Both the position numbers and the translations under genes were made by a program. A DNA stretch of 64,000 nt from a virus, in IMG/VR virus record IMGVR_UViG_3300021961_000068, positions 1-64,000 of that record; one strand, 5' to 3'. A model generated the notes under the pieces. That model was given only the letters and a program-made list of their open reading frames with translations. It ran no database searches and had not been told where the DNA came from. Within the stretch, counting starts at the first letter, position 1; each line of letters starts with the position of its first letter. Positions 8,659 through 46,831 of this stretch are shown piece after piece.

Positions 8659-8668
8659 TCCGTTTAGT

Positions 8669-21912: not shown

Positions 21913-21916
21913 AGCA

Positions 21917-24315: not shown

Positions 24316-25077
24316 CTAATCCTTTTCTTTAGAGTTCTTATAGCGCTCCAACAATCGTCTGCCTTTTTCGGCAAGGCGAGCCGCCGATTCTCTGTCTTGT
24401 GGAACTGGTTCACCCCACGCCGCGGCGGAAAGAGCAAGTCGTGTTGGGCGTCCTTTTTCGTCTTTCATGGGACCTGAAGGGTTTGTGAAGAACCGTGTAA
24501 GGAATGATCCTTTGCGACGCATTTTCTCTGGTGTGTCAGCGCGACCCTTGACACCAGGTTTTAGGTTTGATCCTTCGGTGCGATTAAAGTGCGCTCTACC
24601 CGCGGCGGTTAAACCACCTTTAGGGTCTCGTAACGGTTCAGCAGATTTTTCTTTAATGATTGGTCCACCAGCGACCCATGCGCGACATGTTCTTTTTGAT
24701 GCACATTTGAAATCAAACGCTTCGCAATATCCAAGTTCACCAGCGCTATCTATCGCTTCCCATTCATCTTGTCTTTCCCCACCGGTGACACCAGATTCAA
24801 TACATTTTTTCATTGACGGGGTTTGAATAAAAAGAGAACAGTTGCCGCACAGTTGTTTCTTTGCAGATGTTGTATCCACATCCCACTCTTTTGCCAACTT
24901 GCCCCAATACTCTGTGTTGGGTTCGGCGGGATTCAGTGGACCATACATTGCTGTCTTGATTGCTTTGCCTCTGTTGGCAAGATTGACTGCAATGTCCTGT
25001 GTTGCTTTCGGGCATTGTTTATCGGCTTTGATGCGAACAGAAATCTGTTGCTCAGCCAAAATGTCAGAGAATTTCAT
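24316..25077 (-). CDS. Two-module phage protein (Cys-rich module + DUF6321-like module)
   Basis: CPKATQD...CGNC...GYC...CASKRTCRAW; then RDPKGGLTAAGR...NLKPGV...RRKGSF...PTRLALS. Confidence 0.65.
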   Translation of the reverse strand: MKFSDILAEQQISVRIKADKQCPKATQDIAVNLANRGKAIKTAMYGPLNPAEPNTEYWGKLAKEWDVDTTSAKKQLCGNCSLFIQTPSMKKCIESGVTGGERQDEWEAIDSAGELGYCEAFDFKCASKRTCRAWVAGGPIIKEKSAEPLRDPKGGLTAAGRAHFNRTEGSNLKPGVKGRADTPEKMRRKGSFLTRFFTNPSGPMKDEKGRPTRLALSAAAWGEPVPQDRESAARLAEKGRRLLERYKNSKEKD

Positions 25078-26620: not shown

Positions 26621-28303
26621 TTATTTTGCGTGATATCGTTTTACGACTTGTGGGCAACATTTTTCGGCGTACTTGACTCCGTATTCGCCGTCGTCAAATC
26701 CTGCCCATTTTTTGGTTGTTTTTCGGTTCCGCCAAGGGTGGTCTAATGGGAGCAGGTCATTATCATCAAAATATTTGACATCTTTAGGTTTGTCTGACAT
26801 CAATAGTGATAAGAACTTGGAAATGCGCTTATTTGCTGAGGCTTTGTCACCATCTTGAAGACCTCGTAGGTATACATTTTTGAGGTCTCGCAGGTTAGCC
26901 CGCTGTGCAGGCTTGGCTTTAGCGTTGTGTTGACGCACACGGACAGCAAGATTGTTGATATCGGTGCTTGTGACTGTCGGCGGTTTCTTGCGGGCTTTGG
27001 GTACGCCTTTGAATAAAAACAAGCCTTCACCTAGTTTTTCGGCAGGCTGGTCAAGTGATTTTTTTTCTTGGTTTTTAACAATAACAAACCCAGACAGTTC
27101 CCCTTTTTCATTGGTTGACGTTTCAATGAGTACTTCGTACCCTTTGTCCTTAAGCGTCTTTGCGTAGTTTTCTAATGTTGTTTGTAACATTCTTGTGGCT
27201 TTTTCAAAGTTTGCTTTTCTTTGATCATCAGAAAGACCGATCAAGCCCACATTTCGGTAAACACCCATTGGAACTGTGTGTTCAATTTCAAAATCGCCAT
27301 TTTCTAATTTTCTAGATCGCCAACCAGCCGTCGTTGATCCATAACCACGAACCATAGCCCCACCCCTGTAGCCTGCCTTGCGATAATTACGATCATTTAG
27401 TGCTCGGGCAATTCCTACCTGTGTTGGATTTCTGAACTTTTCCTTTATGATTTTTGGGACTACTGGTATTTTGTCTTTCCCGCCAACAATTCCACCAGTT
27501 GTGAACCCATCCCCGTCGCCGTCCACGAGTTCGTCACTAGGTTTTACTCCGATCGGCGTACCAAGAACCTTTTTCCTGAATTTTGAACCTCGTCGTCTTG
27601 GATTGTTCCTAGGGCTGTTATCCCCTCGGATACCTGTGCGACGGTTGTAGTCAGACACGTTTGTGCAGGGCATCCAAACAAGTTTTCCATCTCGTGCCGT
27701 GTAACGGCGAATACCAATACACCCAAGATTCCTTGAACGGATACGGGCAGACTCAGGGTTACTGAAAGTATCAGGGTCGGTTGAACGGCTAACAAAGTTA
27801 ACGAAACCTTTTTCCTCTACATCATCTTCAGCGTCTTTCCCCGAGAAAGAACCAGTGACCAACCCACCACCCGGTAAGGTCGCAATACCTGTAATAGGTT
27901 TCTCATCAAGTTTTTCCCAACCTTTACGGGGTTTATGGTCGCAAGGCGTGTAATACCTTTTCCCCGCAAGGATCACAGTGCGGACACCTCCGCAACCACG
28001 CGCCTTAGAAATAGATAGAGCGTCAGCACGGCTTTCGTAATACGCATCAGATTTTGTTTCCAAACGCTTAGTGCGTTGAACCATCTTAGGCAAAGGTTTC
28101 TTTTTCTTTGAAGCAAGGGCTTTCAGATATTCTTCTTTGCCTTTTTTGATCGCCTCATACTCTTCATACGACCCGCACGGCATCCAATTGCCGTCTTCTC
28201 CTTCATGCGCACCACTACACCCGAGTTGACGGGCAACACGCATCGCCTGCTCTCTTGTGACCTTTGGTTTCTCTGCTTTAACAGAGAAAGGGATTGATTC
28301 CAC
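26621..28303 (-). CDS. Multi-module head-associated protein with three GCxG...(W)MPC repeats
   Basis: Three DUF3721-like repeats, a DGDGDG motif, and a C-terminal VYLRG...DDNDLLPLDHP module. Confidence 0.7.
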   Translation of the reverse strand: MESIPFSVKAEKPKVTREQAMRVARQLGCSGAHEGEDGNWMPCGSYEEYEAIKKGKEEYLKALASKKKKPLPKMVQRTKRLETKSDAYYESRADALSISKARGCGGVRTVILAGKRYYTPCDHKPRKGWEKLDEKPITGIATLPGGGLVTGSFSGKDAEDDVEEKGFVNFVSRSTDPDTFSNPESARIRSRNLGCIGIRRYTARDGKLVWMPCTNVSDYNRRTGIRGDNSPRNNPRRRGSKFRKKVLGTPIGVKPSDELVDGDGDGFTTGGIVGGKDKIPVVPKIIKEKFRNPTQVGIARALNDRNYRKAGYRGGAMVRGYGSTTAGWRSRKLENGDFEIEHTVPMGVYRNVGLIGLSDDQRKANFEKATRMLQTTLENYAKTLKDKGYEVLIETSTNEKGELSGFVIVKNQEKKSLDQPAEKLGEGLFLFKGVPKARKKPPTVTSTDINNLAVRVRQHNAKAKPAQRANLRDLKNVYLRGLQDGDKASANKRISKFLSLLMSDKPKDVKYFDDNDLLPLDHPWRNRKTTKKWAGFDDGEYGVKYAEKCCPQVVKRYHAK

Positions 28304-28306
28304 GGT

Positions 28307-28570
28307 TTAACCTTTTTTGCGTTTACGTTGTGATGTTTCTGTTTCTGTTTCTATAGATGTTGCTCCAGCGAACTTTGGGAACAATTCATCAACTCGTTCA
28401 GGGTTTTCTGTCAAAAAATAAACCATCTCATCTAATGCGTTTTCGTCTTTAGGATTTTCATTAGCGTAATGGAATCCAATTGTGAGTATTCGGCTACGAG
28501 TTTTTTCGTCTTTGATTTTTTCAAATAATGACATCCGTATTTCGGTTCGTTGTTCTTCTGTAATTTTCAT
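28307..28570 (-). CDS. Small protein, candidate immunity/partner of the GNAT effector
   Basis: 87 aa; start overlaps the stop of 28570..32580. Confidence 0.6.
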   Translation of the reverse strand: MKITEEQRTEIRMSLFEKIKDEKTRSRILTIGFHYANENPKDENALDEMVYFLTENPERVDELFPKFAGATSIETETETSQRKRKKG

Positions 28571-31500
28571 TATCGTATGTTCCCGTCTGTTGGAGCCCGC
28601 AGACTTCTTGGTGTTACATCTGAATTTACTGGAATACGTGGTCGTCTTGTACGAGTCACCCTAGGAGTAGGGGCAACTGCTTGCCCTCGTCTTCTACTAC
28701 CTATTCTTTGTTCAGCAAAACTTAAAAAACCATGACCACCCTTCGCGTTTTGTTTGAACCAGTTTTTTATTTGGTTTTCTCTTCTATTACTACCAACACC
28801 GCTACCGCCCGGCAGTGAACGAGATTGGCTAACAGCAAAAATAAATTCTTGGTGTGTCCCTGGTGGTCGTTTCTCAACTAGGTATTTTAGTCTCCAATAT
28901 TCTTCCGGCGAAGAAATTAGTGGTGAATATCCAAATTTTGCATACTTGTCAAGTTCGGATTGAAATCTGCCAACATTTAGCGGATTGTCGGGTTTGAATC
29001 CAACTTTAGCCCAAACAAACTCACCGTCATCTGCTGGTCCAACCTCTGCTGTGGTCACACCTATTTTTTGCAAGAAATGGAAAGCATGTTGATTATAAAG
29101 TGTTGCTATACCTGCTCCCTTGTCAGTTTCACCTCGTCTGTTAATAAATAAACGACTCTGATACACCTTGTTTGAACCTAATTGAATGCTTCTGACTGAT
29201 TCACCAATATCGGCAGCAATAATATTGCCATTGCTGTCTATCTCATGAAAACGAATACCTATGGTGTAATTAGGTCCAGCACCAGAAACATCAGCCTCCG
29301 ATTTATATGTGCGACCATTTTGTCCTTTTATTGGACCAATTGAATATGCTTCTTTGAGGTACGTTTTTTTATCTGTGCGGCTTAAAGCAGCCCATTTTTG
29401 GGGAGTCATATCGGCGTATGGTTCGTTCGCTGATCCATACTTTTCGTCTAAATAATTAAACAAAACGTCTTGTCGTTTTTCAATCTGCGCAGAAATTTTG
29501 GCTTGTATTTGGTCGCCAACAGGTCCCATTGCTTGACGTCTTTGAGAAACTTCGGGGTCGTTTAAATTCATGAACTCGTCACCTGGATTATTGGATGTTG
29601 CTCTATGTATCAACGCAGAATCAGCATCCCAGTTATCAACGACAAGTTGTAATTGACCGACCTGTGTTAACTGTTTATACAGTTCGGTATTTTTGTATAC
29701 TTGTTCCTTGACTTGCAGAGCAACAATTTGACGGTCTGCCAATAATGTGTTTAATCTTTCTTTTGTGCTTGCAAGAAGTGTTTCCGCATCCTCTTTAGTG
29801 CGAAGTGAGCCATTTGGGTCAATATATCCCCTAAGTCTTGCTTCTCTTTCTTTTCTCGCATCTCTAACACTTAATGTTTGAATTTTAGCAATTGCATTAC
29901 CGTGCTCAGCAGACAACGAGTCTTCAATTGATTTAACTATCAAATTCCATTGAGTTTTGGATGCTGCTCGTCTTACTTCAATTTCTTGTTCATCAATTGC
30001 ATCTAAGACTTTTTGTGCGTTTCCACCAGCGGTAACTTTTGCTACAGCATTATCAAAAACGGGAGCCATATTTCTTACTTGCGCAAAATTAATTGGCTGT
30101 ACAGGACCTGCTAACTGTGCCTGTCGTAATGCTTCTGCTTGTTCTCGGGCTATTCTTTCTGCCTCAAGAACCGCCACTGCTTCTTTTCTTGTTTCAAGAT
30201 TTTCTAGTCTTTGTTCTAGGTTGGATACATTGCCTAGGTTGGCGATTATTCTGTTTAATCTCTGTTCATTTGCGTTTCGCCCACTAGCATCGTCCGCTTC
30301 ACGATTGCTTATCAATGCAGTTAATTCTGTCATAGCCGCTCGCAAAGCCGTTTCGCGTTCTCTTTTTCTTTCAGCAATAGTTGAATTTACTGAATCTAGA
30401 CTCATGCCATTTACAGTACTTAGACGACCCCGAGCATCGCTTTCCGCATTTTGTTTTGCAGCCACCGCCGCCCGTTCAAGTCGTTGCAATACTTGCGTTC
30501 TCTCTGCTTCGGGGAAAACTTCAGCAAAATCTGTTATGAGGTCATTAACTTTTTGCTCTAAATCTTGTCTACGTGCTTGTCCATCTGGGGTATTGATTGC
30601 GTTTTGTATTGCTGCGCTAAGTCTTGATACTGGGGCGGTTCTAGCAAATGCCGCTTGCGTGTTTGGTGCCGCAGGTGCAGGGTCAGGCGCAGGCGCATCA
30701 TTGCGATTAAGAACATTTTGCTTGTGCCAAGCAATTGCATCTTCGCGGTTGGTAAACCCTTGTTTATCTTGCGCAGGTCGACCATGGATAACAAACCATG
30801 TATTGGTAACAGCCTGCTGGTCAATGATGTCGCCGTTTTCGTGCGTAATAATGGTGCCAGGTCCTTGATTCCACCCTTGTGGTAAAGCATTTTGTGCCCC
30901 ACGATCAGGTGCTTGAGGTGCCGCGGGTGTCGGGTCGGGCGTAGGTGCTTGAGGTGCCGCGTCTGGTCTCGGTGACTGTGCTTCGGCTGCTGGTGGTGGA
31001 TTATTTTCAGGTCGTCTTGTTGCAGTTCTTTCTGCTTGCCGTTCCGATGCACGACGACGATTATTTCTATTATTGGTTCTGTTGCCCTGAGCAACCTGTT
31101 CTCGTCTTTGAATTTCCGCTAATACTCGTTGATATTCGGGATTTTCTTTATCAAAATCTGGGTCTGCTTCCATTTCTCTTCGCATACCTTGGAGAACTTC
31201 ATCTGATTCTGGTGCCAACAAATTTACATTTTGTCTTTCGTTTGCATTTGGTCGGCGTCTTTGAGGGCGAGCAGGAATATTTCTTGGTGCGCGTTCATCC
31301 GTGCGAGGGGCGCCGGGTTCAATAATTTCTCGTTCCATTCTCCGTTGTTCAGATTCACGAAGATTAGGTCGTCGCCTTTGACGGGCAGGACGAGCCTGCG
31401 GCGCTGGTGGTTCAAAATCTTGTGGTGCGCTACGACCGTGAGCATCTTTCCAAGCGTCACGAAGATTTTCTTTATTGATTGCGTACCATTCTCGGCGTGT

Positions 31501-32580
31501 CAACATTCCTGCGTTGCCTCCACCTTCACGGATTTCGCGGACACGCTGTGCGTACTCATCGTATTTTCGTAATACGTAAGGTTTGAAGTCTTCTGTTTCT
31601 CCTGCGTCTGATGCGTCTCGTGCTGTGAGTACATCAACATTTTCAGGTTGTGGTGCAACTTGTGGGCGTGGTCGTCGTGCGGGTCTTGGAGTTGGTTCTG
31701 TTTCTGGTGTTACATCTTGTCTTGGAAGTTCAGGAACTTCCCGAGTTAGGGTTGCAGGACGAGCCCGTGGTCTATCCCTATTAATTCTTCGGTTAATAAC
31801 ACCGGCTAAGCCTTCGTTATTTACTCTTTCTAACAAATTCCCTCTTTGTTGAGGTTCTCCTCCCTCAAGACGCTCGGCAACGTTTCGTAGACCGCCTTCA
31901 ATGCGACCCGGCTCGGCGACCCCACTTAACCTTCTGATCATTCGTGCGTTGCGACGGTCAAGGCGACGTTTCCGTTTGTCATCATCTCGTTGCTCTAGTC
32001 GTTCACCGATGTCGGCGATTTGGTTTGCGATTCGTCGCGCTACTCCCCATCCACAAGATCTGCCGAATCTGTCAGTAATCTGTCCGCCGTAGCGTGTCCC
32101 CACAGGGCATCGCCAGCCACCTCTACGGTTCGTTCCAGGAATAGACAAACCTGGATCCCAAAGAGCACGAACTCTTTTAACTTCGTAGTTGAAAGTTGTT
32201 TTTTGTTGTTCACTAATAAATGTGGCGGCTTTATAAGAAATAACGTTTTCAAATTCATATTCAGAAAATATTTTAATTGGTGCATCAGAAACAGACATAA
32301 TAGGAAGATAGTCCCTGTAAATAAAGTCCGATTTGCTTCCACTTTTCAACGCCGAGGGAACTGCCGATTGAGGCATCGGACCTTGCACTGTCATTCCCGA
32401 ATCTAAGGCAGCAGTTAATTCGGTTTTATTTATTTGAGATTTACTGTATTCTTCACTAAATGCTTTGGCAATGTTTTTAGCGTCATTGGAAAGAGGTTTA
32501 AAAGTGCTTCCTTCAGCGGATGACATAACAAGCATGAATGGCTTGCCGTTTCGTGTTTTGATAACAAACGAGGTTTTCAT
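28570..32580 (-). CDS. 1336-aa protein: conserved RCP motif domain, Pro/Arg linker, coiled coil, C-terminal GNAT acetyltransferase
   Basis: GGWRCPVGTRYGGQITDRFGRSCG; C-terminal DKGAGIAT (motif A) and GEFVWAKVGF (motif B). Confidence 0.75.
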   Translation of the reverse strand: MKTSFVIKTRNGKPFMLVMSSAEGSTFKPLSNDAKNIAKAFSEEYSKSQINKTELTAALDSGMTVQGPMPQSAVPSALKSGSKSDFIYRDYLPIMSVSDAPIKIFSEYEFENVISYKAATFISEQQKTTFNYEVKRVRALWDPGLSIPGTNRRGGWRCPVGTRYGGQITDRFGRSCGWGVARRIANQIADIGERLEQRDDDKRKRRLDRRNARMIRRLSGVAEPGRIEGGLRNVAERLEGGEPQQRGNLLERVNNEGLAGVINRRINRDRPRARPATLTREVPELPRQDVTPETEPTPRPARRPRPQVAPQPENVDVLTARDASDAGETEDFKPYVLRKYDEYAQRVREIREGGGNAGMLTRREWYAINKENLRDAWKDAHGRSAPQDFEPPAPQARPARQRRRPNLRESEQRRMEREIIEPGAPRTDERAPRNIPARPQRRRPNANERQNVNLLAPESDEVLQGMRREMEADPDFDKENPEYQRVLAEIQRREQVAQGNRTNNRNNRRRASERQAERTATRRPENNPPPAAEAQSPRPDAAPQAPTPDPTPAAPQAPDRGAQNALPQGWNQGPGTIITHENGDIIDQQAVTNTWFVIHGRPAQDKQGFTNREDAIAWHKQNVLNRNDAPAPDPAPAAPNTQAAFARTAPVSRLSAAIQNAINTPDGQARRQDLEQKVNDLITDFAEVFPEAERTQVLQRLERAAVAAKQNAESDARGRLSTVNGMSLDSVNSTIAERKRERETALRAAMTELTALISNREADDASGRNANEQRLNRIIANLGNVSNLEQRLENLETRKEAVAVLEAERIAREQAEALRQAQLAGPVQPINFAQVRNMAPVFDNAVAKVTAGGNAQKVLDAIDEQEIEVRRAASKTQWNLIVKSIEDSLSAEHGNAIAKIQTLSVRDARKEREARLRGYIDPNGSLRTKEDAETLLASTKERLNTLLADRQIVALQVKEQVYKNTELYKQLTQVGQLQLVVDNWDADSALIHRATSNNPGDEFMNLNDPEVSQRRQAMGPVGDQIQAKISAQIEKRQDVLFNYLDEKYGSANEPYADMTPQKWAALSRTDKKTYLKEAYSIGPIKGQNGRTYKSEADVSGAGPNYTIGIRFHEIDSNGNIIAADIGESVRSIQLGSNKVYQSRLFINRRGETDKGAGIATLYNQHAFHFLQKIGVTTAEVGPADDGEFVWAKVGFKPDNPLNVGRFQSELDKYAKFGYSPLISSPEEYWRLKYLVEKRPPGTHQEFIFAVSQSRSLPGGSGVGSNRRENQIKNWFKQNAKGGHGFLSFAEQRIGSRRRGQAVAPTPRVTRTRRPRIPVNSDVTPRSLRAPTDGNIR

Positions 32581-32681
32581 TTAGGTCTTTCTTCTTGATA
32601 TATCCCTAGAAACGAGGGAGAGAATACCTTAAAATGGTATCACTATTATGTAAACCCAAAAGAGCAGTATAGGCACCGCCA

Positions 32682-32972
32682 CTAATTATTCAGGCTGTAA
32701 CCCATTTCCTGGATTAACCCATCAATCTTAATTTTTGCTTTACCGCTATATTCACCGCTTTCGCAGTCGTAATACGAAAAGCCAGATGTGACGTCTTCAA
32801 ATCCTGCCATTTCAGGACTTTCTTTAGCCACATCTTTATACCAATTAGCAAAAAATTCGTCTTCTTCTTTGTCGTCAGAGTATCTAACTACCCCATCTTC
32901 TTTTTCAATAAAAATAATAGGGTTAAGGTTTGGAACAGCAATTCCTGTCAACCTGAAAATTTTATATCGCAT
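32682..32972 (-). CDS. Small acidic protein, candidate immunity/partner of the kinase effector
   Basis: 96 aa, begins 10 nt after the kinase gene stop. Confidence 0.6.
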   Translation of the reverse strand: MRYKIFRLTGIAVPNLNPIIFIEKEDGVVRYSDDKEEDEFFANWYKDVAKESPEMAGFEDVTSGFSYYDCESGEYSGKAKIKIDGLIQEMGYSLNN

Positions 32973-32982
32973 ATATACTTGA

Positions 32983-35685
32983 CTATATCACAGGTGCGAG
33001 CATCGCATCAACTATTTGTTCTGGAGTCTGCGACAACACCCAGTCTATTCTTTGTTGAGTAAATGAAATTTTGCGTGGTTCACTCGCTCGCGCACCTGAC
33101 GCTCCAGTAACAGGCGGTACTTGTGGGTTTTGACCAGCGGCATCAATAACATTTTGACCAAACTCAGCGAATCTTTTTTGTGCTTCAGCCTCGCGCAAAA
33201 GTTGTTGCGATTTTCTCGCTTCTTCAATCATTGCTGTTCTAGTCCTGCCAGCATCACGACCAGTTTCGGAGTCATGTTTAGTTCTCAAAGACCCAATTAA
33301 TTTGTTTCTTCTACCTCCGTAGGAACTCTTTAACCACTTTTTAAAACCTGTTTCGTCCGCATAAGACAAATCACGGTCAAATTCTCTAGCCGCAAAACCA
33401 AGAGACGGGTCATACGGAATAACATGGTCTTGACCATTGGCATCCCTTTGGACAAAAAAGTTACCACCGTGTCTATCTGTGTTTAGAATCAAAAAATCTA
33501 ACATTGTCAAACGAATTTTTTCGTTTAACGGGATTGAATTTTCGTACCCATTTCTTTGTGGTGGGGCTACTGTGCCGTCAATGTAGTTTTCTGCATGTTC
33601 AAACAAAATTGGTCTACCTTGACCATGTCTGTCTCTGTACACAGGTCCAGCAAATCTAAATTCGCCTACCGGGTATCCAAGTCGTCCTTGAATTTCGTTT
33701 CCTAAAATCTCATTAACATCTTCATTATTCCTATATCTTGTTCCGTCATATTTTATAAGTAGTGTTTTACCAGTATTTGCGTCTTTGTATTGCTGTATTT
33801 GACCATTACTGTTTCGCCCCAGATCACCTAATGGTTTTAATTTGATAAAACGTTTAGACGCATCAACTGGTCCGCCCGGCTGACCGGGTCTGCCTACGCG
33901 TATTGTCGTTGAGTTTTTCTTGATTGCTTCATACACAAACTCATCGGGGACATCTGCTAAATCGCCACCATTGTTGACATGTGCTACCGCATCTTGCTTA
34001 GTGTTGATGCTTTTGTTCCCTATATCAACTCTTTTACCTGTCCCTAAACCGTTAAAATCTCTTGGGGCAAGTTTGTTATCGTTTTCTTTTGCTTTAGCCA
34101 GGTCTGAATCCACTGTTCTTGGGGCTGGACGACCATCGTTATCGTTTCCTCTTTGTTGTTGCCTATTTGTCTCTCTTGGTCTTCTTGGTGCTCTTGGTGC
34201 TCTTGGAGCAGGTGGAGCAGGTGGAGCAGGTGGTTCTGATCGTGCAGGGGCAGGTTCCTGTGTAATTATGGCTCCGTCTAAGTCCCTTGTTCTTGTATCT
34301 TGTAAATTCCCAATACGATTACGTAGCGCATCCCTTCTTCTTTGTTCTTCTCGAACAATTGCGTCTCTTGCACCGTTTCGCTCCATTTGGTCAAGATTGC
34401 GTTCTGCTTCTGATACAAGTTTGCGTAGTTCAGCAATTTGTCTTTGGCGCTCAACTTCGTCTGATGGCATGCGAGCGTTTACAGCATTTTCCGCATTATC
34501 CGCTCTCTGTCTAGCGTCTTCAATTGCTGCTTCAGCCATTGCTTCACGGTTTTGTCGTAATTCTTCTGAACGAGCAGCATTATCGCTGTTTCCGGGTTGC
34601 CGTGGCGGTTGAGGAGGTTGACTTCTTGGTTGGGCTGGCGTATTAGTCTCTTTTTTAATTTTTCGGTTTACATAATCGCCTCGTGCGTTACGTTGATTGT
34701 TATCGTCGTAGTAGCGACCAAATCTACGTTCAAGTTCCGCCTTGTCGTCTCCTTGATATGCGTCTTCGCGCCAGTAAGCGGTATCTGGAAGTCCTCTTTC
34801 ACGAAAACGATTACGCACATTTCTTTGTGACCGAGTATCAGGAAGACTCCCACCTAGGTCTGGTGCGTTAAAATCAGGATCTGGTTCTACAACTAATGGC
34901 TGTGGAGGCGCTGATGGTGGCTTTCGTTGTGGAACCGCTGTAGGTACGGGCTTAGCGCCGTCAACGAAATCTGCTTCAGGTTTTCTGCGTGCGGTTCTCC
35001 TTGCACCCTGTTGTGTGGCGGCTCTGCGTCGCCCTCTTGGTCTATTAGGTTTTGGTGGTTCACCTGTACGAGGTGCACCGGGTTCTACGATTTCTCGTTC
35101 CATTCGTCTTTGTTCTGATTCACGAAGATTTCCGCGACGACGTCTTGCAGGTTTTCGTCCACGTTGTTCTCGTTCTACAAGTTCCACAATTTGGTCTGTA
35201 TTAATTTGTGGTGACGGTCTACCTCTTCTGCGTTGTGGACGAGGTGAAACTGAATCAATATCAGCAACTGGGAGTTGAGGTGGTTGCTCGCCGTCAAGTG
35301 CTTCAGCAACACCTCTTGCGCCACGCTCAAGAAAACCGGGTTTCTGCTGACGAGACAAAAGCCTTTGCATACGAGCATTCCGTTTAGCGATACGGTTATT
35401 TCGTTTGCGGTCATCAATATTCTCTAAACGCTCACCAATGTCGGCAATTTGATTAGCAATACGCCTAGCAACACCCCAACCACACGAACGACCAAACCTG
35501 TCAGTTATTTGACCGCCGTAACGAGTACCGACAGGACAACGCCAACCACCACGGCGGTTAGTGCCGGGGATGGAAAGACTTGGATCCCATAAAGCACGGA
35601 CACCTTTTACTTCGTAGTTGAAAGTGCTTGCTGTTTGTTCTGAGATGAAAGTCAAAGCCTTGAAGTTGACTTCATTTTTCTGCAT
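32983..35685 (-). CDS. 900-aa protein: conserved RCP motif domain, Pro/Arg linker, C-terminal HipA/PI3-4-kinase-like domain
   Basis: Same N-terminal motif as 28570..32580; LLIKY...NEILG...DFLILNTDRHGGNF...IPYDPSLGF. Confidence 0.8.
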   Translation of the reverse strand: MQKNEVNFKALTFISEQTASTFNYEVKGVRALWDPSLSIPGTNRRGGWRCPVGTRYGGQITDRFGRSCGWGVARRIANQIADIGERLENIDDRKRNNRIAKRNARMQRLLSRQQKPGFLERGARGVAEALDGEQPPQLPVADIDSVSPRPQRRRGRPSPQINTDQIVELVEREQRGRKPARRRRGNLRESEQRRMEREIVEPGAPRTGEPPKPNRPRGRRRAATQQGARRTARRKPEADFVDGAKPVPTAVPQRKPPSAPPQPLVVEPDPDFNAPDLGGSLPDTRSQRNVRNRFRERGLPDTAYWREDAYQGDDKAELERRFGRYYDDNNQRNARGDYVNRKIKKETNTPAQPRSQPPQPPRQPGNSDNAARSEELRQNREAMAEAAIEDARQRADNAENAVNARMPSDEVERQRQIAELRKLVSEAERNLDQMERNGARDAIVREEQRRRDALRNRIGNLQDTRTRDLDGAIITQEPAPARSEPPAPPAPPAPRAPRAPRRPRETNRQQQRGNDNDGRPAPRTVDSDLAKAKENDNKLAPRDFNGLGTGKRVDIGNKSINTKQDAVAHVNNGGDLADVPDEFVYEAIKKNSTTIRVGRPGQPGGPVDASKRFIKLKPLGDLGRNSNGQIQQYKDANTGKTLLIKYDGTRYRNNEDVNEILGNEIQGRLGYPVGEFRFAGPVYRDRHGQGRPILFEHAENYIDGTVAPPQRNGYENSIPLNEKIRLTMLDFLILNTDRHGGNFFVQRDANGQDHVIPYDPSLGFAAREFDRDLSYADETGFKKWLKSSYGGRRNKLIGSLRTKHDSETGRDAGRTRTAMIEEARKSQQLLREAEAQKRFAEFGQNVIDAAGQNPQVPPVTGASGARASEPRKISFTQQRIDWVLSQTPEQIVDAMLAPVI

Positions 35686-37425
35686 TTAATTTTTCTTTCG
35701 GTTTTTAGCCAAATCTGGTTTAATGAATGTCTCGTAAAGCCAGCGTGTAGCAGTTCGTTTAATGCCGTCAGCGCCTGTGTACTCCACAAGTTCTAATGCG
35801 TCAGGCACGGCTCCCGTATCAGCAACAAATTTGAATGCACCATCAGAATTTTTTGCGAAGTCTTCAATGTTTTTGATGATGTTGTCTTTGTTGCTTGACT
35901 CTGCAAGAGAATTGATCATGCGTGGGAACTTGCGTTTTTCACCAATCGTGAAAGGTCGTGAGCGTTCAATACTGACAGTCACGCCGTTCGGTGCAACAAA
36001 AGCAATTTTACTCATCGATGGACCACCAAGAAGTGCCAAATCGTCCGCCTCTATGTCGGCAGGTAATTGAATAGCACGAATCATTGCGCCATCTTCCATG
36101 TCAGGGTTTTCACTAAACGAACGCAGAACCGAAGAAGGAACAACAGGACGCAAAATGACACCATCTCGGCGAATCATTCTACCTTCTCCCCTTGGGGCAC
36201 CTTTAAGCAGTTTGATTGAATCCGCTACTGAACGATTAAATTTATCTTTTTGAAAAGCGCCAGTTCTTGGGATTTGTGCCATGCGTTGAATTTGAATAGT
36301 TCTCGTATTGCTTGGATTTCCTTCTAATACTTCAGAAAGATTTTCTGCTCTTGCTGTTGGAAGTTTAGGGTTTACAAGTCTGCGTGCTGCTCGTGCAAGT
36401 AAAGCAAGCGGTCCTGGTATTTCAAATAGTTGCGCACCACAAGTAGAGAAACGGTTATCTGTAAATCGTCCGCCGAATGCAAAACCGGCAGGGCATCGTG
36501 CTTGTCTTCTGCGGTTTGGCTTTAATCTACTGAGTACACCTTGTCCTCCACCCGGTATTAAAGCACCGTAAACTCTTGAACGAATAGGTGAATTTGATGG
36601 AGAAATATTTCCTGGTGTTAGCGCTGATCCAACCGCCTGAGCCGCTCTACCTAATGGGTTACCTGAACCGATAATACCTGCTTTGGTTTCAATATCCTCA
36701 GCGTCGTCTTTCTCAACACGGTATCCACCGCCACGTTTCTTGTATTCGCGAACAAGCCAAGCATTTGCATAAGCAGACGGGTACACATTGAACTTCTTTT
36801 TTGCTTCCGCTTTCACCCTTGCGTAAAGTTCGGAGTCAGTCGGAATATTGACACCCTTGATTTCGGTTTCTTCGCAACAAGATGTGACTACATCAGACTT
36901 CATTGTGGACACATTGATTGGCTTCTTATCTACACGAGTCTGAGAGTTTTCGGCTCGGCGTTTCCTGCTTATAGCAGAAGCAATCTGCTCGGGAGTCATG
37001 CTCATTGCTCTAGATTTTTTTACACATTTTGGATACTTGCCCGTATTGGCGTCTCCTCTACCGCAAGACTCAAAACCTCCACCTTTTTTGGGACGAGATA
37101 TATCAACCCATTCTTCTTCAAACCATTTACCTAAACCACCTCGTTTAGTTTCATCGCCAATAAAAGTTTCTGCACCCAAACGAGAGGTACGGGATTTTAG
37201 GTAAAGTTTTGCTTTAAAGTTTAAAAGAGCCCTATTCCCGTCCAAGGGTGTTTTGCGAACGTTGGATCCTTTGGTAAAAATAAACTGTGTTTTTGCGTTC
37301 TCGGGGTCAAAAAATAGTTCTTGCCCTAACGCAATATTTGTTCTTTTCATTTTCGTTTTCTCACGCATAGACATACGAAGTTTCCGTGCGAAATATTCAA
37401 AGTCTTGGTTGAGGTAATTGTTCAT
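35686..37425 (-). CDS. Multi-module protein with DUF5872-like modules and RCP motif
   Basis: GLGKWFEEEWVDI...CGR...YPKC; LYARVKAEAKKKFNVYPSAYANAWLVREYKKRGGGY; RCPAGFAFGGRFTDNRFSTCG. Confidence 0.7.
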   Translation of the reverse strand: MNNYLNQDFEYFARKLRMSMREKTKMKRTNIALGQELFFDPENAKTQFIFTKGSNVRKTPLDGNRALLNFKAKLYLKSRTSRLGAETFIGDETKRGGLGKWFEEEWVDISRPKKGGGFESCGRGDANTGKYPKCVKKSRAMSMTPEQIASAISRKRRAENSQTRVDKKPINVSTMKSDVVTSCCEETEIKGVNIPTDSELYARVKAEAKKKFNVYPSAYANAWLVREYKKRGGGYRVEKDDAEDIETKAGIIGSGNPLGRAAQAVGSALTPGNISPSNSPIRSRVYGALIPGGGQGVLSRLKPNRRRQARCPAGFAFGGRFTDNRFSTCGAQLFEIPGPLALLARAARRLVNPKLPTARAENLSEVLEGNPSNTRTIQIQRMAQIPRTGAFQKDKFNRSVADSIKLLKGAPRGEGRMIRRDGVILRPVVPSSVLRSFSENPDMEDGAMIRAIQLPADIEADDLALLGGPSMSKIAFVAPNGVTVSIERSRPFTIGEKRKFPRMINSLAESSNKDNIIKNIEDFAKNSDGAFKFVADTGAVPDALELVEYTGADGIKRTATRWLYETFIKPDLAKNRKKN

Positions 37426-37596
37426 TTTGTCAGTTCTTTAGGTGCTAGTCGGTCTGAAAGGGATTTCCTTATTGCATATTGGGCACCAACCCACTGTTCC
37501 AAGAATATCAGGTTTAATACCTTCGTAAATCTTTGTGTACTAGTCAATAAGTTTTAGTCGTTTTGTTTTACGGGCTCCCAATACCCACAAGATAAA

Positions 37597-37668
37597 CCTG
37601 ACCCGCCCCAGATGTTGGGCTCCAAACCGCATCTACGGTTGGCGTACCAACGGGCGCGGGTTTGTAGG
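37597..37668. ncRNA. Candidate structured RNA element
   Basis: GC-rich island with ACCCGC/GCGGGT closing stem, GTTGG/CCAAC and CCAACCGT/GCGGTTTGG stems, and complementary AGAT(G)/(C)ATCT loops. Confidence 0.35.
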
Positions 37669-37712
37669 TAGGTCTTCCAAGACTATCTCCGCCTGCATAT
37701 GTTGAAAGCGAC

Positions 37713-37952
37713 TCAATCTCTTTTTTCATCATTAATTGATTGGCGCCAAGATTCTATGTTTTTATCGTTGATATTAAATGGAATTTTGTTTGGTTCGTTT
37801 TTGAGCATCAAACTGAAATCAGCAGACGATACTTTGTCTCCACTGACCATATACCAAACTTTGCCATCTGTCCCATGTACAGCAAAGCCGTCGCCATACG
37901 GGAAAACTCTTTCACTCGTATTCCCACTATATTTCGGTGAACCAATATCCAT
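37713..37952 (-). CDS. Small protein, candidate immunity/partner of the metallopeptidase effector
   Basis: 79 aa, abuts the stop of 37953..40319. Confidence 0.55.
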   Translation of the reverse strand: MDIGSPKYSGNTSERVFPYGDGFAVHGTDGKVWYMVSGDKVSSADFSLMLKNEPNKIPFNINDKNIESWRQSINDEKRD

Positions 37953-40319
37953 TTAGATAACGCTACCCTGTTCTAATTCGGGCATGGAATTTATTGCTGT
38001 CTGAAGCATCTTAACCCATGCTTTTGCTTGTGGAGTCATAATAGTCGGAGTCGCTAGACCTGAATCACTTGGTGCCATTGATTGCACCATATTTTTCATT
38101 TCGTCAAAAGATTTATCGTCCATAATTTTGGTATCAGGGAAGTTTTCTGTGAGCATTGTCAATAATTTTGCCTCAGCGAAAGCCTCCCAATTATTGGTTT
38201 GAGCATATTTTGAAGCAGAGCCAAGAACAGGCATAATTTCGCTTGGTTTGATGCCTTTAGTATTTATTCTTGTCGAATCAAAACCTAAAGTTTCGTCAAA
38301 TAGTTGTTTCCCTTCTTCCAAAAACTTTTCAATTGTTTGACCACCAAGTTGGTTTTCTACAAGTTCTCTAATTTTTTCAACTGAAGAAATACTGTCATTG
38401 TCTTCAAAAGAGTACATTGAAACTTTATTATTTTTAACTGAAATCAATGCTTCTCTAAACAGTTTCTTTTTAGGGTCAAGACCTTCGCTAAAATTGTTAA
38501 GAATAAAACCCAAATTATCCATTACTGAATCAGAATCTAAGTCATTATCGTTGTGGGCTATATTTTTTGCATATACAGCAAAAAGAGAATTTAAATTTGG
38601 TGTAGATGTATAACCAAAAATTTTTGCCCGCATTCTTTTATCGTTGAATGCTATTTCAACATCTTCCCAATCAGTATCGGGGTCAATATTGTAAGAAACA
38701 GCAAACTTTGCGCCAATAAAAGTGTCGCCAATTTTTGAACCTTGTTTTTTGATTTGTTCAAGCGCTGGTGGGTCGGATGCTGTTGAATTTATGCCTAGCG
38801 TTTTTAAAACTTCCGCATAATGGGCGACATGAGATAGTTCGTGTATTGAAAGACCTATTTGATAGTCATCGGTTCCTGCAATTTTTACAGAGCCGTTAAA
38901 CATGTCCCCTTTTTCCATTGCGTCACCACCGGCGCCAACATTACTTATCAGCAGTGAATCAGCATAAAATCTTGTTGCTGAAATAATTTTCCCGTCAGGG
39001 TAATCCGCTATCCACGCATAAGCCGAAGCAGTTTCAGGTCCGCCATCACCTGTTTGATGTATCTCAAATGTGAATGCTCCACGCAAAGAAGGATTGTCTT
39101 GCATATGCAATTCTGCTCCCGCGAGAGCCTCAACAAAACCTCTTCCTATTTCTTTACGGACAGCGTCACGACCATCTTCTGTCTCCAACATTGATTTGAT
39201 TTTTTCTAGTTGGTCAGCGGTGTTTCTCAATCGTTCCTTTGATGCATCATCAACCCCATCTTCATCAGATTTATTTCTCAGTCGGGAAATCCTTGTAGTT
39301 AACAAATCACCTCTTAAATCATTCATCCCACCATCAAGCATTTCTTTCATGCTTCTTGACTTAGGGATACCCATTTTTGCAATCAGTTCATCACCGTATT
39401 CTTCAACTTCTTTGTTTTTTGCGTCGGGAACATATTTGTCTAAAAGTTTTGTGATTTTTGCATCCAACTCTGTGTTGAAAGAATCAGCGTCAAATGTAAC
39501 TTTTGCTAAATCATCTTTTCTTATTGAAGCATCAGGTGGAGCCGCATTTGCTTTAGTGATGTCATCGGTTGGGGAGCGCGTATCTACTTTGGATTTTTCT
39601 ATTTTGGGTGTATTGACTACATCTGTTGCGCCGCTTAATTCTGAGATCAAGTTGTCATCAATTTCTTTCTGTTTTTCTTTTTTCTCTTTACGCCTTTTTA
39701 GGTTCGCTAGAACAAAGTTTCTTGCATCAACTAAGGCATCTTTTTTAAGTTTTGACGCAATTGCATCTAGTTGCTCTTTCCTTTGGTCAGATATTTTTCC
39801 TCTTTTTTGAAGAGACTCGGTAGCGAACTCTAAAACCTGAGCCCCACCAGCCCTCAATAAAAGCATGCTCATTAATGTGGAATCAGTAAGAGAACCTGAA
39901 CCGTCCACTTGCATATAATCCATTGCTTGCAAAGCCGCGAGTGCTGTTGCTTTTGCGCCGTTTCTTACGTTTTCGCTTTTTAAGATGCCTTTTGCGCCGT
40001 CAATCATTTTCCCTACCAAAGCAGCGGCTCCTCGTGCCGCCGTCTCCGCGCTAGGTATCAAACAATTGGACATTTGCATGTCGGTGAATTGGTTTGCGTT
40101 CGGAGTACCTGGTGGGCATCGCAATTTACCTAGCGCATCCACTATCACGCCAGACGCACGAGCAGCACGTGTTCCAACAGAATCTAGATCGGGTCTATCT
40201 TTTACGGTCGGTCCGAGGAATCCTTTAAAAAGTAAAAGGTTTTCTTGAACTACCGCAACGGATTTGCGATACTCTGCGACTCTTTCGTTTGCGTCAAAAG
40301 CGCGAGACGATTTAATCAT
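37953..40319 (-). CDS. 788-aa protein: RCP motif and C-terminal HExxH zinc metallopeptidase
   Basis: KLRCPPGTPNANQFTDMQMSNC; IHELSHVAH and downstream SKYAQTNNWEAFAEA. Confidence 0.75.
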   Translation of the reverse strand: MIKSSRAFDANERVAEYRKSVAVVQENLLLFKGFLGPTVKDRPDLDSVGTRAARASGVIVDALGKLRCPPGTPNANQFTDMQMSNCLIPSAETAARGAAALVGKMIDGAKGILKSENVRNGAKATALAALQAMDYMQVDGSGSLTDSTLMSMLLLRAGGAQVLEFATESLQKRGKISDQRKEQLDAIASKLKKDALVDARNFVLANLKRRKEKKEKQKEIDDNLISELSGATDVVNTPKIEKSKVDTRSPTDDITKANAAPPDASIRKDDLAKVTFDADSFNTELDAKITKLLDKYVPDAKNKEVEEYGDELIAKMGIPKSRSMKEMLDGGMNDLRGDLLTTRISRLRNKSDEDGVDDASKERLRNTADQLEKIKSMLETEDGRDAVRKEIGRGFVEALAGAELHMQDNPSLRGAFTFEIHQTGDGGPETASAYAWIADYPDGKIISATRFYADSLLISNVGAGGDAMEKGDMFNGSVKIAGTDDYQIGLSIHELSHVAHYAEVLKTLGINSTASDPPALEQIKKQGSKIGDTFIGAKFAVSYNIDPDTDWEDVEIAFNDKRMRAKIFGYTSTPNLNSLFAVYAKNIAHNDNDLDSDSVMDNLGFILNNFSEGLDPKKKLFREALISVKNNKVSMYSFEDNDSISSVEKIRELVENQLGGQTIEKFLEEGKQLFDETLGFDSTRINTKGIKPSEIMPVLGSASKYAQTNNWEAFAEAKLLTMLTENFPDTKIMDDKSFDEMKNMVQSMAPSDSGLATPTIMTPQAKAWVKMLQTAINSMPELEQGSVI

Positions 40320-40331
40320 CGCCTCTCCTTA

Positions 40332-40595
40332 TCAGTCGCTTGAATCTGACGCTTTATTAATCGTTGACATTGAAACCACATCATCATCCTCTACTTCTTT
40401 TTTCTTAGAAGCCTTTTTGGGTTCCACTTTTTCTTCAACAACTTTTTCAACGACTACTGGTTCTTCTTTGACTTCAACCTCAACAACAGCAACCTCTACT
40501 TCAGGTGTCACCACCACAGGGGCTTGTTCTTGTTTTGTATCAAAAAGGAGCCCTGAAGTGTTTACCGAATCAACAGGTTGATTTAGTTTTTTCAC
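40332..40595 (-). CDS. Small low-complexity Glu/Val/Lys-rich protein
   Basis: 87 aa, in operon. Confidence 0.6.
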   Translation of the reverse strand: MKKLNQPVDSVNTSGLLFDTKQEQAPVVVTPEVEVAVVEVEVKEEPVVVEKVVEEKVEPKKASKKKEVEDDDVVSMSTINKASDSSD

Positions 40596-42088
40596 TTGTC
40601 AAAACCTGTTTCAATTTCAAGCATCTCAAGTTCCATCAAACTGCTCAAGAACTCTTTTGCTTCATCGTCAAGGAGAACTTTCTCGTTTGGTTTCTCTGAA
40701 TTCCATGATTCTGGAATCATGTCTTCTTTGCCGAGTTCCTTAGCACGCTTCATGCAATGCATCTTCGCTTCGTCTTGATCTTTTGCACGACCGACAGCCA
40801 TAATTGCCATCTTCAAGTCCTCTTCATCCTTGATTGGGTAAGAGCCGTCTGCCATTGCCATTCCGCCCTTAGCCATTTCCATGCGCTCATCTTCGCTATA
40901 CATTGCTTTTAAAGCAATGTCGGCTACTTCTTCGTCAATGTCGGCTGCTTCCTCTGGCTCATATTCATCAAAGCCAAGAATTTCACCGTCAACACCAACA
41001 TAAACATCGTAAGATTTTCCGTCTACGCCTTCAATCTCTACGGCGTAAGCGTCATATCCGTCAAACATGTCTGCGTCAACAGAAACAACTTCACCATCAA
41101 TTGACTTTGTTGCAATAGCGGAAGCCTCACTGAACGAAATCACTTTCTGACCAGGAACTGTTGCTACTTCGCCAATCAAGTCTTCATTGAGAAGATGCCA
41201 ACCCATGCATTCACCGCTTGAACCATCAAAGTAAGCCTCAACAGGTTTTCCGTCTTTGCGTTGAACATCAACAACAAAAATATCAACTTCATCTGCGTAG
41301 CCCGAGTCAAGAACTTTCCCTGCAAACATACTTTCAGCCATACCTTCAACCTCTAGAAGACTTGGCATTGTGTCTTGCTGTTCGCAACCACCTGGGCATG
41401 ATGCACAAATTTCTGAACCGCCCGCATAAACCCGACGCTCAATAGCGCAAACAAAAGCAAGATCGTCATAGTCAGCCGACTTGACGCCCATTGTTTCCAT
41501 GCGCTTCGCACGAGCCTTCTTGCGTTGCTCCATCATTTTTTCAATTTCGCCGTACATTTTTTCTTCTTCGTCGTCAAGATCTTCTGGCATGTCTTCTTCT
41601 TCGTCGTCTTCTTCTTCGGCGACCATTGGCATTGCAGGCTTCTTTTTCTTTTTAGGAGTAGGCATATCCTCGTCCATCACGGCGATGTCTTCTTCTAACT
41701 TTGCACCCTTTTCTTCGGATGCAGTGACCCACTCACTCTTTTCGCCCTCAACCGGCGTTGCTACTTCTGGTGCAGCGTCATTGGGTACGGCTTCTTCTGT
41801 TTGGGTCACAGCCTTTGCTCCGCACTTACCACAAACTTTTGCACCCGGCTTGTAACCACAATCTTTGAGTTCTAAACCTTTTGCGCACTCAATTCCGCCG
41901 TCTGCCAAAAGTTTTACTATCGGTGTTTCGCTAGCCATGTTCGTGGACTCCTTATAGTGCATTGTTTTGGCAATGCACCGTGATGGATTAGAGCAAACAG
42001 AGCATGGTGTCAAGCGTTTTTCGCCTGACATCAAACACTGATACTTTGCTGTTTTTTGTGGTAAACCTGTTATTGAAGTATAACTCAT
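40592..42088 (-). CDS. Acidic multi-module protein (Zn ribbons, two PepSY-like repeats), possible scaffold
   Basis: CxxC pairs; ISFSEASAIATKSIDGEVVSVDADMFDGYDAYAVEIEGVDGKSYDVYV; C-terminal DGSYPIKDEEDLKMAI...RAKELG..IPESW; alternative start 41938. Confidence 0.7.
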   Translation of the reverse strand: MSYTSITGLPQKTAKYQCLMSGEKRLTPCSVCSNPSRCIAKTMHYKESTNMASETPIVKLLADGGIECAKGLELKDCGYKPGAKVCGKCGAKAVTQTEEAVPNDAAPEVATPVEGEKSEWVTASEEKGAKLEEDIAVMDEDMPTPKKKKKPAMPMVAEEEDDEEEDMPEDLDDEEEKMYGEIEKMMEQRKKARAKRMETMGVKSADYDDLAFVCAIERRVYAGGSEICASCPGGCEQQDTMPSLLEVEGMAESMFAGKVLDSGYADEVDIFVVDVQRKDGKPVEAYFDGSSGECMGWHLLNEDLIGEVATVPGQKVISFSEASAIATKSIDGEVVSVDADMFDGYDAYAVEIEGVDGKSYDVYVGVDGEILGFDEYEPEEAADIDEEVADIALKAMYSEDERMEMAKGGMAMADGSYPIKDEEDLKMAIMAVGRAKDQDEAKMHCMKRAKELGKEDMIPESWNSEKPNEKVLLDDEAKEFLSSLMELEMLEIETGFDK

Positions 42089-42142
42089 CTTAGTCTTTTG
42101 TTTTTGCTACAAATGGAACCAACATAAAAAGGTTTTAATTAT

Positions 42143-44278: not shown

Positions 44279-44370
44279 GGTACTCCAAAAAATGTTTGTT
44301 TATTAACAATAAACTATTTGGAGCGCCAAAAAATGAACACTTTAAGTATATTGGGGGTATTTTACTGAAA

Positions 44371-46769: not shown

Positions 46770-46831
46770 CTTAGCAAATGAAAGACCTATTTAATACTAC
46801 ATTATGTATCTACCTATTTTTACGAGGGCTA

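Follow-up and report, generated by a model that had tools for sequence, protein, structure and literature searches.

We analysed a 64,000-nucleotide stretch of viral DNA (IMG/VR record IMGVR_UViG_3300021961_000068, positions 1 to 64,000; hereafter the window), which is the first 64 kb of one 73,027-bp contig without a terminal repeat. In its head operon, between the genes for an S78 prohead protease and an HK97-type major capsid protein, four co-oriented proteins (p788, p579, p900 and p1336) carry a common module with two invariant cysteines. In related phages, an enzyme domain and the small partner gene behind it are swapped by recombination as one cassette behind conserved fronts. We favour, with moderate confidence, the view that this stretch is the cargo section of the phage head operon, a split form of the 'polyvalent' effector protein, in which enzymes would be loaded into the head together with their own inhibitors.

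A shared two-cysteine module in four head-operon proteins

The module spans ~90 amino acids (aa) and has the core R-C-P-x-G-x4-[GN]-x-[FI]-T-D-x5-C, in which seven columns (R, C, P, G, T, D and C) are invariant across 19 non-redundant copies from this phage and its relatives. All four window genes lie on the minus strand. The core falls at aa 67-87 of p788 (788 aa, 37953..40319; core at nucleotides (nt) 40059-40121), at aa 310-330 of p579 (579 aa, 35686..37425; nt 36436-36498), at aa 49-69 of p900 (900 aa, 32983..35685; nt 35479-35541) and, behind an extended front, at aa 157-177 of p1336 (1336 aa, 28570..32580; nt 32050-32112). Residues 3-518 of p900 match residues 111-575 of p1336 with E 3e-68. 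The two fronts are 83% identical over ~90 aa, and the likeness continues into linkers that are rich in Arg and Pro (as many as 22 and 20 per 100 aa, respectively) and have another motif, of 22 aa, in common. The copies in p788 and p579 are diverged.

This stretch had been singled out in an original prediction made from the DNA letters, which named three large open reading frames (ORFs) of 1336, 900 and 788 aa and three small ones of 87, 96 and 79 aa. All six are present on the minus strand where it placed them. The common N-terminal motif that it described is real, as the match and the invariant columns above attest, and its count of three genes was one short, p579 having been missed. Likewise, it placed a small ORF behind each enzyme, which is correct for p788, p900 and p1336; the fourth tagged protein, p579, has none.

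Enzyme domains and small partner genes are exchanged as one cassette

A scan anchored on p579 retrieved 26 viral contigs with the same operon. Their usual plan consists of five tagged genes or slots: a p788-type front with a variable end; p579; a p900-type front with a kinase; an extended front with a second kinase; and a p900-type front with a GNAT-like end. These are followed by p560 and then by the capsid gene. Front modules are 62-100% identical where the ends behind them do not align. The p788-type front (N788; 69-87% identity over the first ~200 aa) precedes at least five kinds of full-length end, namely kinase (13 genes), DUF3626 (3), ParB-like 'DGHHR' (2), class C7 (2) and HExxH (2), while the N900 and extended front types carry kinase or GNAT-like ends. 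Homologues thus differ in their C-termini, as had been predicted.

The small gene downstream follows the enzyme end. For each end class (11 kinase subclasses, GNAT-like, DUF3626 and HExxH) the partner belongs to a distinct family; this holds for 65 of 66 evaluable genes, and the remaining gene is situated at the end of a locus. Family s1, that of the window ORF s96, stands behind kinase subclasses C1.1, C1.2, C1.8 and C1.11 in 28/28 cases and with two different front-module types. The other kinase subclasses pair as C1.3 with s3, C1.4 with s5, C1.5 with s6, C1.6 and C1.7 with s4, C1.9 with s11 and C1.10 with s12. GNAT-like ends pair with s2 (that of the window ORF s87a; 9/10 cases, the tenth at a locus end), DUF3626 with s7 and HExxH with s9 (that of s79). 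Partners go with the enzyme domain and not with the front module, and the partner families have diverged past recognition while the kinases can still be aligned. The enzyme domain and its small partner gene are swapped as one unit behind conserved fronts. The arrangement put forward in the original prediction, with a conserved front, an exchangeable C-terminal enzyme and a co-varying small downstream gene, is borne out in the 26 loci and by a relic within the window itself.

A 'D-G-K' hairpin-like stretch had led us to suspect a common superfamily of all partners. This was rejected, as hhalign linked s4 with s12 (prob 64.5) and s6 with s11 (prob 46) only, all other pairs having prob <4.

A relic of a displaced cassette lies behind s79

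The cassette relic (37557..37747, minus strand; out of frame and non-coding) lies in and around a 287-bp gap behind s79. Its first part (37616-37747) is a fragment of a DUF3626 (SopF-family) effector domain, in which tblastn found 37/44 aa identical to residues 431-474 of a 562-aa protein of L016 (E 4e-19). Its second part (37557-37601) corresponds to the last 15 codons of partner s7, with 12/15 identical (E 5e-4). At the DNA level the window is here ~84% identical to L016, L021 and L026 on both sides of a ~430-bp deletion, and the front behind which the cassette was replaced is 73% identical over residues 1-242. Together, the relic fragments and the flanking DNA match to these three loci indicate that the present HExxH and s79 cassette displaced most of a DUF3626 and s7 cassette and left the front unchanged. 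SopF has ADP-ribosyltransferase activity, and the effector domain of the L016 protein matches Pfam DUF3626 with E 7e-11. The DUF3626 family includes SopF according to passages of PMC6682159.

An orphan s1-type ORF was also looked for in the 287-bp gap and not found; the gap contains the DUF3626 relic instead.

The p1336 gene may record a further exchange. Its front resembles that of slot 4 (53-59% identity over residues 1-390/457) and its end that of slot 5 (36-42% over ~960-1300), so that p1336 looks like a recombinant of the two, with one kinase cassette lost. The same combination of slot-4 front and slot-5 end is found in other clusters, e.g. P0089 and P0134.

p900 ends in a predicted kinase whose partner is modelled at the active site

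Behind an Arg/Pro-rich linker (aa ~100-560), p900 ends in a kinase domain (aa 562-900, nt 32986-34002) with the residues K645, E659, D737, H739, N742 and D759. Its Pfam PI3_PI4_kinase match is sub-threshold (16 bits vs a cut-off of 27.1), and a paralogue in L004 exceeds the cut-off with 31.5 bits. The catalytic set of ATP-binding Lys, helix-C Glu, DRHxxN loop and metal-binding Asp is kept in 11/12 aligned domains, K84, E98, D176, R177, H178, N181 and D198 (domain numbering) being invariant or nearly so. A profile of the domain matched Fam20-like 4kqa (E 1.6e-4), Helicobacter pylori CtkA (4.6e-4) and PI4KB (1.7e-3) in the PDB, and further PI3K, DNA-PKcs and mTOR, over an E range of 1.6e-4 to 0.1. 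By these profile matches and conserved residues, the p900 C-terminus is identified as a PI3/4K/HipA/CtkA-like kinase with an intact catalytic set.

The sole exception in the 12-row alignment is a stand-alone 253-aa kinase-like ORF of L005 (7756-8517), which also occurs in L006 (8928-9689). This ORF, which may encode a pseudokinase, has E-R-D in place of D-R-H and is located in slot 1 after a ParB-like 'DGHHR' end.

The 96-aa ORF s96 (32682..32972, minus strand), directly downstream of p900, is an acidic member of family s1, in which P18, S66 and Y67 are invariant. We ran complex prediction on the pair formed by the kinase domain and s96. The score was 0.73 (runs 0.58, 0.79 and 0.73), compared with 0.00 for the best of three controls. 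A mark of 0.73 is met by 58/80 solved complexes and by 2/110 mismatched pairs, a calibration that is only approximately valid here, as our own alignments were used as input. The runs had at least 54% of contacts in common, and the predicted local distance difference test score (pLDDT) of the partner was at least 81. The confident interface includes the ATP-binding Lys K84, catalytic-loop residues 176 and 178-181 and the metal-binding Asp at 197-198 on the kinase side, and residues 63-71 of s96, including the invariant Ser66-Tyr67. The model supports, and does not show, binding of s96 at the kinase active site, in line with the binding foreseen in the original prediction, and s96 is predicted to be an active-site plug, whether inhibitor or pseudosubstrate.

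p1336 and p788 end in candidate acyltransferase and zincin domains

Between its extended front and its C-terminus, p1336 has an Arg/Pro-rich linker and a coiled coil (aa ~700-1000). The C-terminal domain (aa ~1070-1296, nt ~28690-29373) has no Pfam match and no PDB sequence match. Its AlphaFold2 (AF2) model, from a 38-row alignment, has pLDDT 84.4 and a predicted template modelling score (pTM) of 0.79. Foldseek matched this model to the p300/CBP histone acetyltransferase (HAT) domain (E 3e-4) and to the GNATs 3d8p and 3fix (prob 1.00). In VIA, a fold search independent of Foldseek, 50/50 top rows were GNAT-fold proteins (Z 7.1-8.8, root-mean-square deviation 2.5-7.0 over 96-144 residues), among them protein N-acetyltransferases and the tRNA-acetylating toxins TacT and AtaT. 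A G-x-G turn ahead of a helix is conserved in the alignment of p1336 with GNAT-like relatives. On this structural evidence it is plausible that p1336 ends in a GNAT-fold acyltransferase. The partner ORF of this cassette, s87a (87 aa, 28307..28570, minus strand), belongs to family s2, whose other members are 39-41% identical to it.

The coiled coil of p1336 shows a likeness to the capsid protein: aa 723-830 align with capsid aa 1-101, the delta-like region, at 26% identity across 108 aa (BLAST against a database of 14 proteins, E 4e-4). The local score is 80, compared with 39 +/- 6.4 for shuffled sequences, and 0/300 shuffles reach 80. We treat this as a lead, because both stretches are coiled-coil-like and shuffling destroys that property. 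The coiled coil could co-assemble with the capsid interior, or the likeness could simply reflect coiled-coil composition.

In p788 a linker leads to an HExxH domain (aa ~380-788, nt 37956-39182; H493, E494, H497, H500 and Y501). The signature HExxHxxHY is invariant in 8/8 sequences (six database homologues, one in L028 and the window's own). The AF2 model has pLDDT 63 and places HExxH on a helix (model residues 106-128). The top VIA rows were mostly zincin peptidases (Wss1, SPRTN, M1, M13 and minigluzincins) at Z 5.0-6.3, and Atlas leads pointed to zincin/ATLF (lethal-factor-type) clusters at 0.86-0.88, below the reliable level of that tool. Foldseek with the p788 model gave no match at E<=0.001, and p788 has no Pfam match. 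We call the domain zincin-like, with modest support, since the model is mediocre, Foldseek is null, Z lies at 5.0-6.3 and the Atlas leads are sub-reliable. Its partner ORF s79 (79 aa, 37713..37952, minus strand; family s9) has a single homologue, 42% identical, in L028; there it follows the one HExxH-class protein that the 26 loci contain besides p788.

Thus, of the three enzyme folds originally proposed, the GNAT fold is upheld by the VIA rows and the kinase by profiles and catalytic residues. The HExxH motif stands as read, with modest support for its fold, and Pfam was sub-threshold or null throughout. Single-sequence PDB searches with the three window C-terminal domains gave nothing significant. 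Searches of the PDB with the relatives' DUF3626-class and C7-class domains gave nothing, and for this reason C7 is left unnamed and C4 is called just DUF3626.

p579 is the constant member of the array

p579 has a homologue in all 26 loci, at 63-91% identity. Its C-terminal domain is conserved and has no assigned function, and its N-terminal part (aa 95-236) contains two small modules, phrog_23735 and DUF5872. GenBank phages match p579 through these small modules only (10 aquatic phages). In Pelagibacter, Roseobacter and Synechococcus phages the two modules occur as separate small proteins.

No small ORF follows p579 in 25/25 complete copies (26 loci plus the window). A short s1-type ORF lies directly before it in three loci (L018 9757-10008, L019 9748-10008 and L028 9648-9920). 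This ORF may be an orphan that outlasted a former kinase cassette, or its function may be connected with p579.

The module family is widespread, with a narrow set of ends

A search with the p900 front returned 457 proteins of 495-1575 aa. Among the best 120 of these, 102 end in the kinase class and 17 in the GNAT-like class, and 1 is a fragment. Counted as representatives of 50%-identity clusters, matches to the module profile number 497 at E<=1e-3, 248 at <=1e-10 and 84 at <=1e-30. In the best 150 of the 497 we found kinase 70 times, GNAT-like 43, the p579 end 15, HExxH 9, C7 5, ParB-like 3 and DUF3626 1. The repertoire is narrow, since 131 of these 150 carry at least one of the seven classes; the 19 without a class include 17 fragments of <600 aa. 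In this respect the original prediction of a polymorphic array is not supported, as the ends are not hypervariable in the manner of classical polymorphic toxins.

The window's p900, p1336 and p788 have one recognisable enzyme each. Relatives combine several, with GNAT-like plus kinase in P0153 and P0208, p579 end plus GNAT-like plus kinase in P0234 and P0253, and NUDIX plus kinase in P0250. Giant fusions reach 2669 and 4528 aa with GNAT-like and kinase domains, and ~1900-2400 aa with the p579 end and more domains. New domains appear at the edge of the family, namely NUDIX (P0250) and a 2H phosphoesterase (P0264); a scan of viral contigs with P0264 gave no matches.

In the P0250 lineage, whose capsid is 62-63% and whose portal is 60-65% identical to that of the window phage, one tagged protein of 2409-2447 aa occupies the same position between protease and capsid. 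It is preceded by the protease gene and a relative of p498; three small ORFs and a relative of p560 then separate it from the capsid gene. In the giants of L029, L031, L035 and L037, a stretch at aa ~19-126 shares 50-67% identity with a segment of the protease-extension protein of the window (prot711; E ~1e-26 to 1e-27). By this similarity, the protease extension and the cargo proteins may share a module.

Head-operon layout and genome setting

The window belongs to a tailed-phage genome with a large terminase gene at 46778-48136 (plus strand). From portal to capsid all genes are co-oriented on the minus strand, with intergenic spacing from a 4-bp overlap (-4) to 139 bp and the 287-bp gap that holds the relic as the sole exception. 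The first gene of the operon encodes a portal of 736 aa (44371..46581; Pfam Phage_portal at residues 56-380, E 7e-48) with a C-terminal MuF-like domain (Phage_Mu_F at residues 642-729, 29.8 bits vs a cut-off of 29.6). This was the sole MuF match in Pfam, with none in p788, p579, p900 or p1336, which agrees with the earlier statement that MuF is fused to the portal and carries no toxin. The flanks of the array were also correctly named. The prohead serine protease (711 aa, 42143..44278, minus strand) matches Peptidase_S78 at residues 27-172 (E 7e-11) and has a ~540-aa C-terminal extension. The HK97-type major capsid protein (25159..26481, minus strand), with its N-terminal delta-like region, matches Phage_capsid at residues 166-433 (E 2e-44).

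In the direction of transcription, the order from protease to capsid is p498, s87b, p788, s79, the 287-bp gap, p579, p900, s96, p1336, s87a and p560. The p498 protein (40592..42088, minus strand) is strongly acidic, with a net charge of -10 to -24 per 100 aa past residue 100. It has a below-cut-off PepSY match (E 3.6e-4) and is 80-95% identical in 23/24 loci holding the gene and 65% identical in L028; it could be a scaffold-like head-assembly protein. The 87-aa acidic ORF s87b (40332..40595, minus strand) is not paired with an enzyme and has no family match. Homologues (46-97% identity) occur in 20/24 loci holding the position, and none was found in the other four (L018, L019, L020 and L028). 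Between the array and the capsid gene lies p560 (26621..28303, minus strand), a basic protein with a DUF3721 module (Pfam E 6e-13) and homologues at the same place in relatives. On reading its sequence we noticed repeated short Gly/Cys-containing motifs. Beyond the capsid gene there are a head-module protein, p253 (24316-25077, minus strand; DUF6321, E 2e-30), and then a staphylococcal-nuclease homologue (23906-24313, E 3e-13).

Among cultured phages, those with the most similar capsid protein infect actinobacteria: Brevibacterium phage Cantare (48%) and Gordonia phage GMA6 (47%). In these phages too, genes for large enzymes lie between portal and capsid; their annotations are RNA ligase, VIP2-like ADP-ribosyltransferase toxin, endolysin and hydrolase. 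A DNA search of the GenBank phage collection with the array was negative. Across 27000-46900, scans found 21 promoter-like sites vs 28.8 expected and 25 terminator-like sites vs 22.3 expected, and hence no signal of either kind; a tRNA scan found none.

Elsewhere the genome encodes three DNA methylases, a primase-helicase and a class II ribonucleotide reductase. The methylases are of the N6/N4 type (7951-9859, minus strand, and 16203-17603, plus strand; E 2e-43 to 5e-48). Together with a ParB_N protein (10285-11052) and a PAPS-reductase-like protein (50913-52046), they amount to a large commitment to DNA modification or anti-restriction. The ten largest other ORFs scanned include neither an integrase nor a repressor. 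Two adjoining genes at 21424-22888 (plus strand) encode a 162-aa protein with a sub-threshold match to DSPc (dual-specificity phosphatase; E 1.8e-4, 21.7 bits vs 33.5) and a deacetylase of the HDAC family with 342 aa, whose Hist_deacetyl match (E 7e-18) exceeds the cut-off. These two could be erasers of the marks made by the head-operon kinase and GNAT-fold enzyme.

Discussion

If the array is a cargo section, the front module would dock the tagged proteins in the assembling procapsid, where their long linkers would lie with the DNA and the prohead protease would process them. The proteins would then be ejected with the genome, and their modification of host proteins would begin as soon as infection does. 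In the producing cell a small, fast-evolving partner in the active site would keep each enzyme silent, as predicted for the kinase pair and inferred for the GNAT and HExxH pairs. Loading into the head and ejection are deduced from gene position, and the MuF domain on the portal could still take part in loading, so that the MuF-independence put forward in the original prediction is conjectural, as is the role that it gave the proteins in disabling host defence or excluding competitors.

Several observations weigh against this view. Searches matched the front module to no known fold or family, and the ESM Atlas gave no usable hit. No physical link of the module to capsid, portal or protease emerged from those searches. 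The module had no tblastn match in the GenBank phage collection, and no cultured phage there carries it. The zincin fold match is weak (Z about 6, no Foldseek match). In the loci with an s1-type ORF before p579, the nearest upstream enzyme is not a kinase, being a class C7 end in L018 and L019 and an HExxH end with s9 in L028. The complex score is model confidence from our own alignments and does not discriminate between inhibitor and substrate. The ends are of few kinds, which suits a fixed toolkit better than an open-ended toxin arsenal. Finally, the co-variation of partners is in part plain synteny and shared ancestry among related genomes. It exceeds synteny, however, because s1 occurs behind two front types, because end and partner are replaced jointly within one slot, and because the relatable partners (s4/s12 and s6/s11) pair with kinase subclasses that are closest to one another.

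The main rival, which we regard as fairly unlikely, is that these are late cytoplasmic enzymes that reside in the head operon and are not packaged. They might, for example, modify host or phage proteins in assembly or time lysis, with the module serving as a regulatory, oligomerisation or localisation domain. Such a role would suit a module without recognisable link to capsid proteins, it gains from the fact that packaging is argued from gene position, and a partner inhibitor would make sense for a controlled enzyme acting in the producing cell. Yet a late-acting enzyme needs no stoichiometric active-site plug from the same operon, and the position between protease and capsid is kept in a lineage whose capsid is just 62-63% identical. 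Moreover, long basic disordered linkers and a giant polyprotein fusion are typical of head-internal or ejected proteins in the passages of PMC5512222 that bear on this.

A separate question is whether the small ORFs are inhibitors or immunity proteins at all. They could instead be substrates, folding or packaging chaperones, or co-loaded adaptors, which we consider distinctly unlikely. In the model Ser66-Tyr67 lies against the catalytic loop, where a phospho-acceptor would sit too, but the predicted interface also buries the ATP-binding Lys and the metal-binding Asp besides the substrate site. Small acidic proteins encoded beside an effector are the pattern of secretion chaperones, and p579 does without a partner. 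On the other hand, partners that diverged beyond recognition next to alignable kinases are the usual pattern of inhibitors and antitoxins, and these partners travel with the enzyme domain rather than with the front module. Highly improbable, in our judgement, is a true polymorphic toxin system, in which toxins released at lysis or on particles would kill neighbours and the small ORFs would protect kin, as has been suggested for MuF toxins that temperate phages encode. Polymorphic toxin loci are defined by features present here, namely the layout, displaced cassettes and an orphan relic (PMC3482391 and PMC5576092). However, no lysogen is evident that could profit from immunity, because the ten largest other ORFs scanned include no integrase or repressor. 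The narrow set of ends consists of protein-modifying enzymes rather than nucleases or pore-formers, and the effectors have no MuF domain.

Taking the cargo reading further, and more tentatively, we propose that the RCPxG module is a previously unrecognised capsid-loading tag of widespread, uncultured and probably lytic phages. They would deliver recombining effectors from the virion, each with a private active-site plug, and the same genome may carry erasers, at 21424-22888, that reset the marks or resist those of rival phages. The chief interest lies in the undescribed front module as a possible capsid-loading tag and in the dynamics of the enzyme/inhibitor cassettes. If the module is such a tag, it would offer a portable signal to put arbitrary proteins into HK97-type phage heads and a sequence handle for injected effectors in metagenomes, with 497 protein clusters known to contain it. 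New inhibitors of kinases, acetyltransferases and proteases would become available from the enzyme/partner pairs. Lytic phages would be seen to vary their weapons through the exchange of cassettes, much as bacteria do with polymorphic toxins, the relic in the window being a direct footprint, and the broad disarming of defences by phage kinases would extend to enzymes that arrive before any phage gene expression.

Comparison with known systems

An N-terminal signal directs the internal proteins and Alt of T4, with their capsid-targeting sequence, and the Dar proteins of P1 into the prohead, where the prohead protease processes them; once ejected, they act against host defences. The analogy is functional only. 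There is no sequence likeness, and the module described here has ~90 aa and two invariant cysteines, as against a ~10-aa peptide. To our knowledge, no partner inhibitors accompany the T4 internal proteins, Alt or the Dar proteins. The protein kinase of T7 is made from an early gene rather than from a head operon, and its kinase family differs from that of p900. It phosphorylates many host proteins and disarms defences (PMC13645617), a precedent for what an incoming kinase could do.

Polymorphic toxin systems (Zhang et al. 2012, PMC3482391) resemble the array in exchanging C-terminal cassettes by recombination, in placing an immunity-type gene directly downstream and in leaving displaced relics. 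Here, by contrast, delivery would be by a phage capsid and not a secretion system, and toxicity and immunity are putative. The MuF polymorphic toxins (Jamet et al. 2017, PMC5576092) are likewise phage-encoded; in them a head-associated domain, conserved at the N-terminus, is joined to a variable toxin at the C-terminus, and an immunity gene lies downstream. They differ from the present system in that here MuF is on the portal, there are no lysogeny genes among the ORFs scanned, the repertoire of ends is narrow and the head operon contains several tagged genes one after another.

The nearest known concept is that of the polyvalent proteins. Passages of Iyer et al. 2017 (PMC5512222) describe phages that package effectors in the head, with peptidases, kinases, GNATs and ParB-like domains or DNases recurring. 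As there, effector enzymes of this system lie among late or structural genes, with packaging and injection as their putative route. Both include kinases, GNATs, peptidases and ParB-like domains, with 2H and NUDIX domains in distant members of the present family, and relatives of this system also fuse their domains into single giant proteins. In contrast to the polyvalent proteins of those passages, each enzyme here has a separate gene with its own front module, which the passages do not mention. The kinase is PI3/4K/HipA-like, whereas they describe a truncated Ser/Thr/Tyr-kinase clade, and each enzyme has its own cognate small partner gene.

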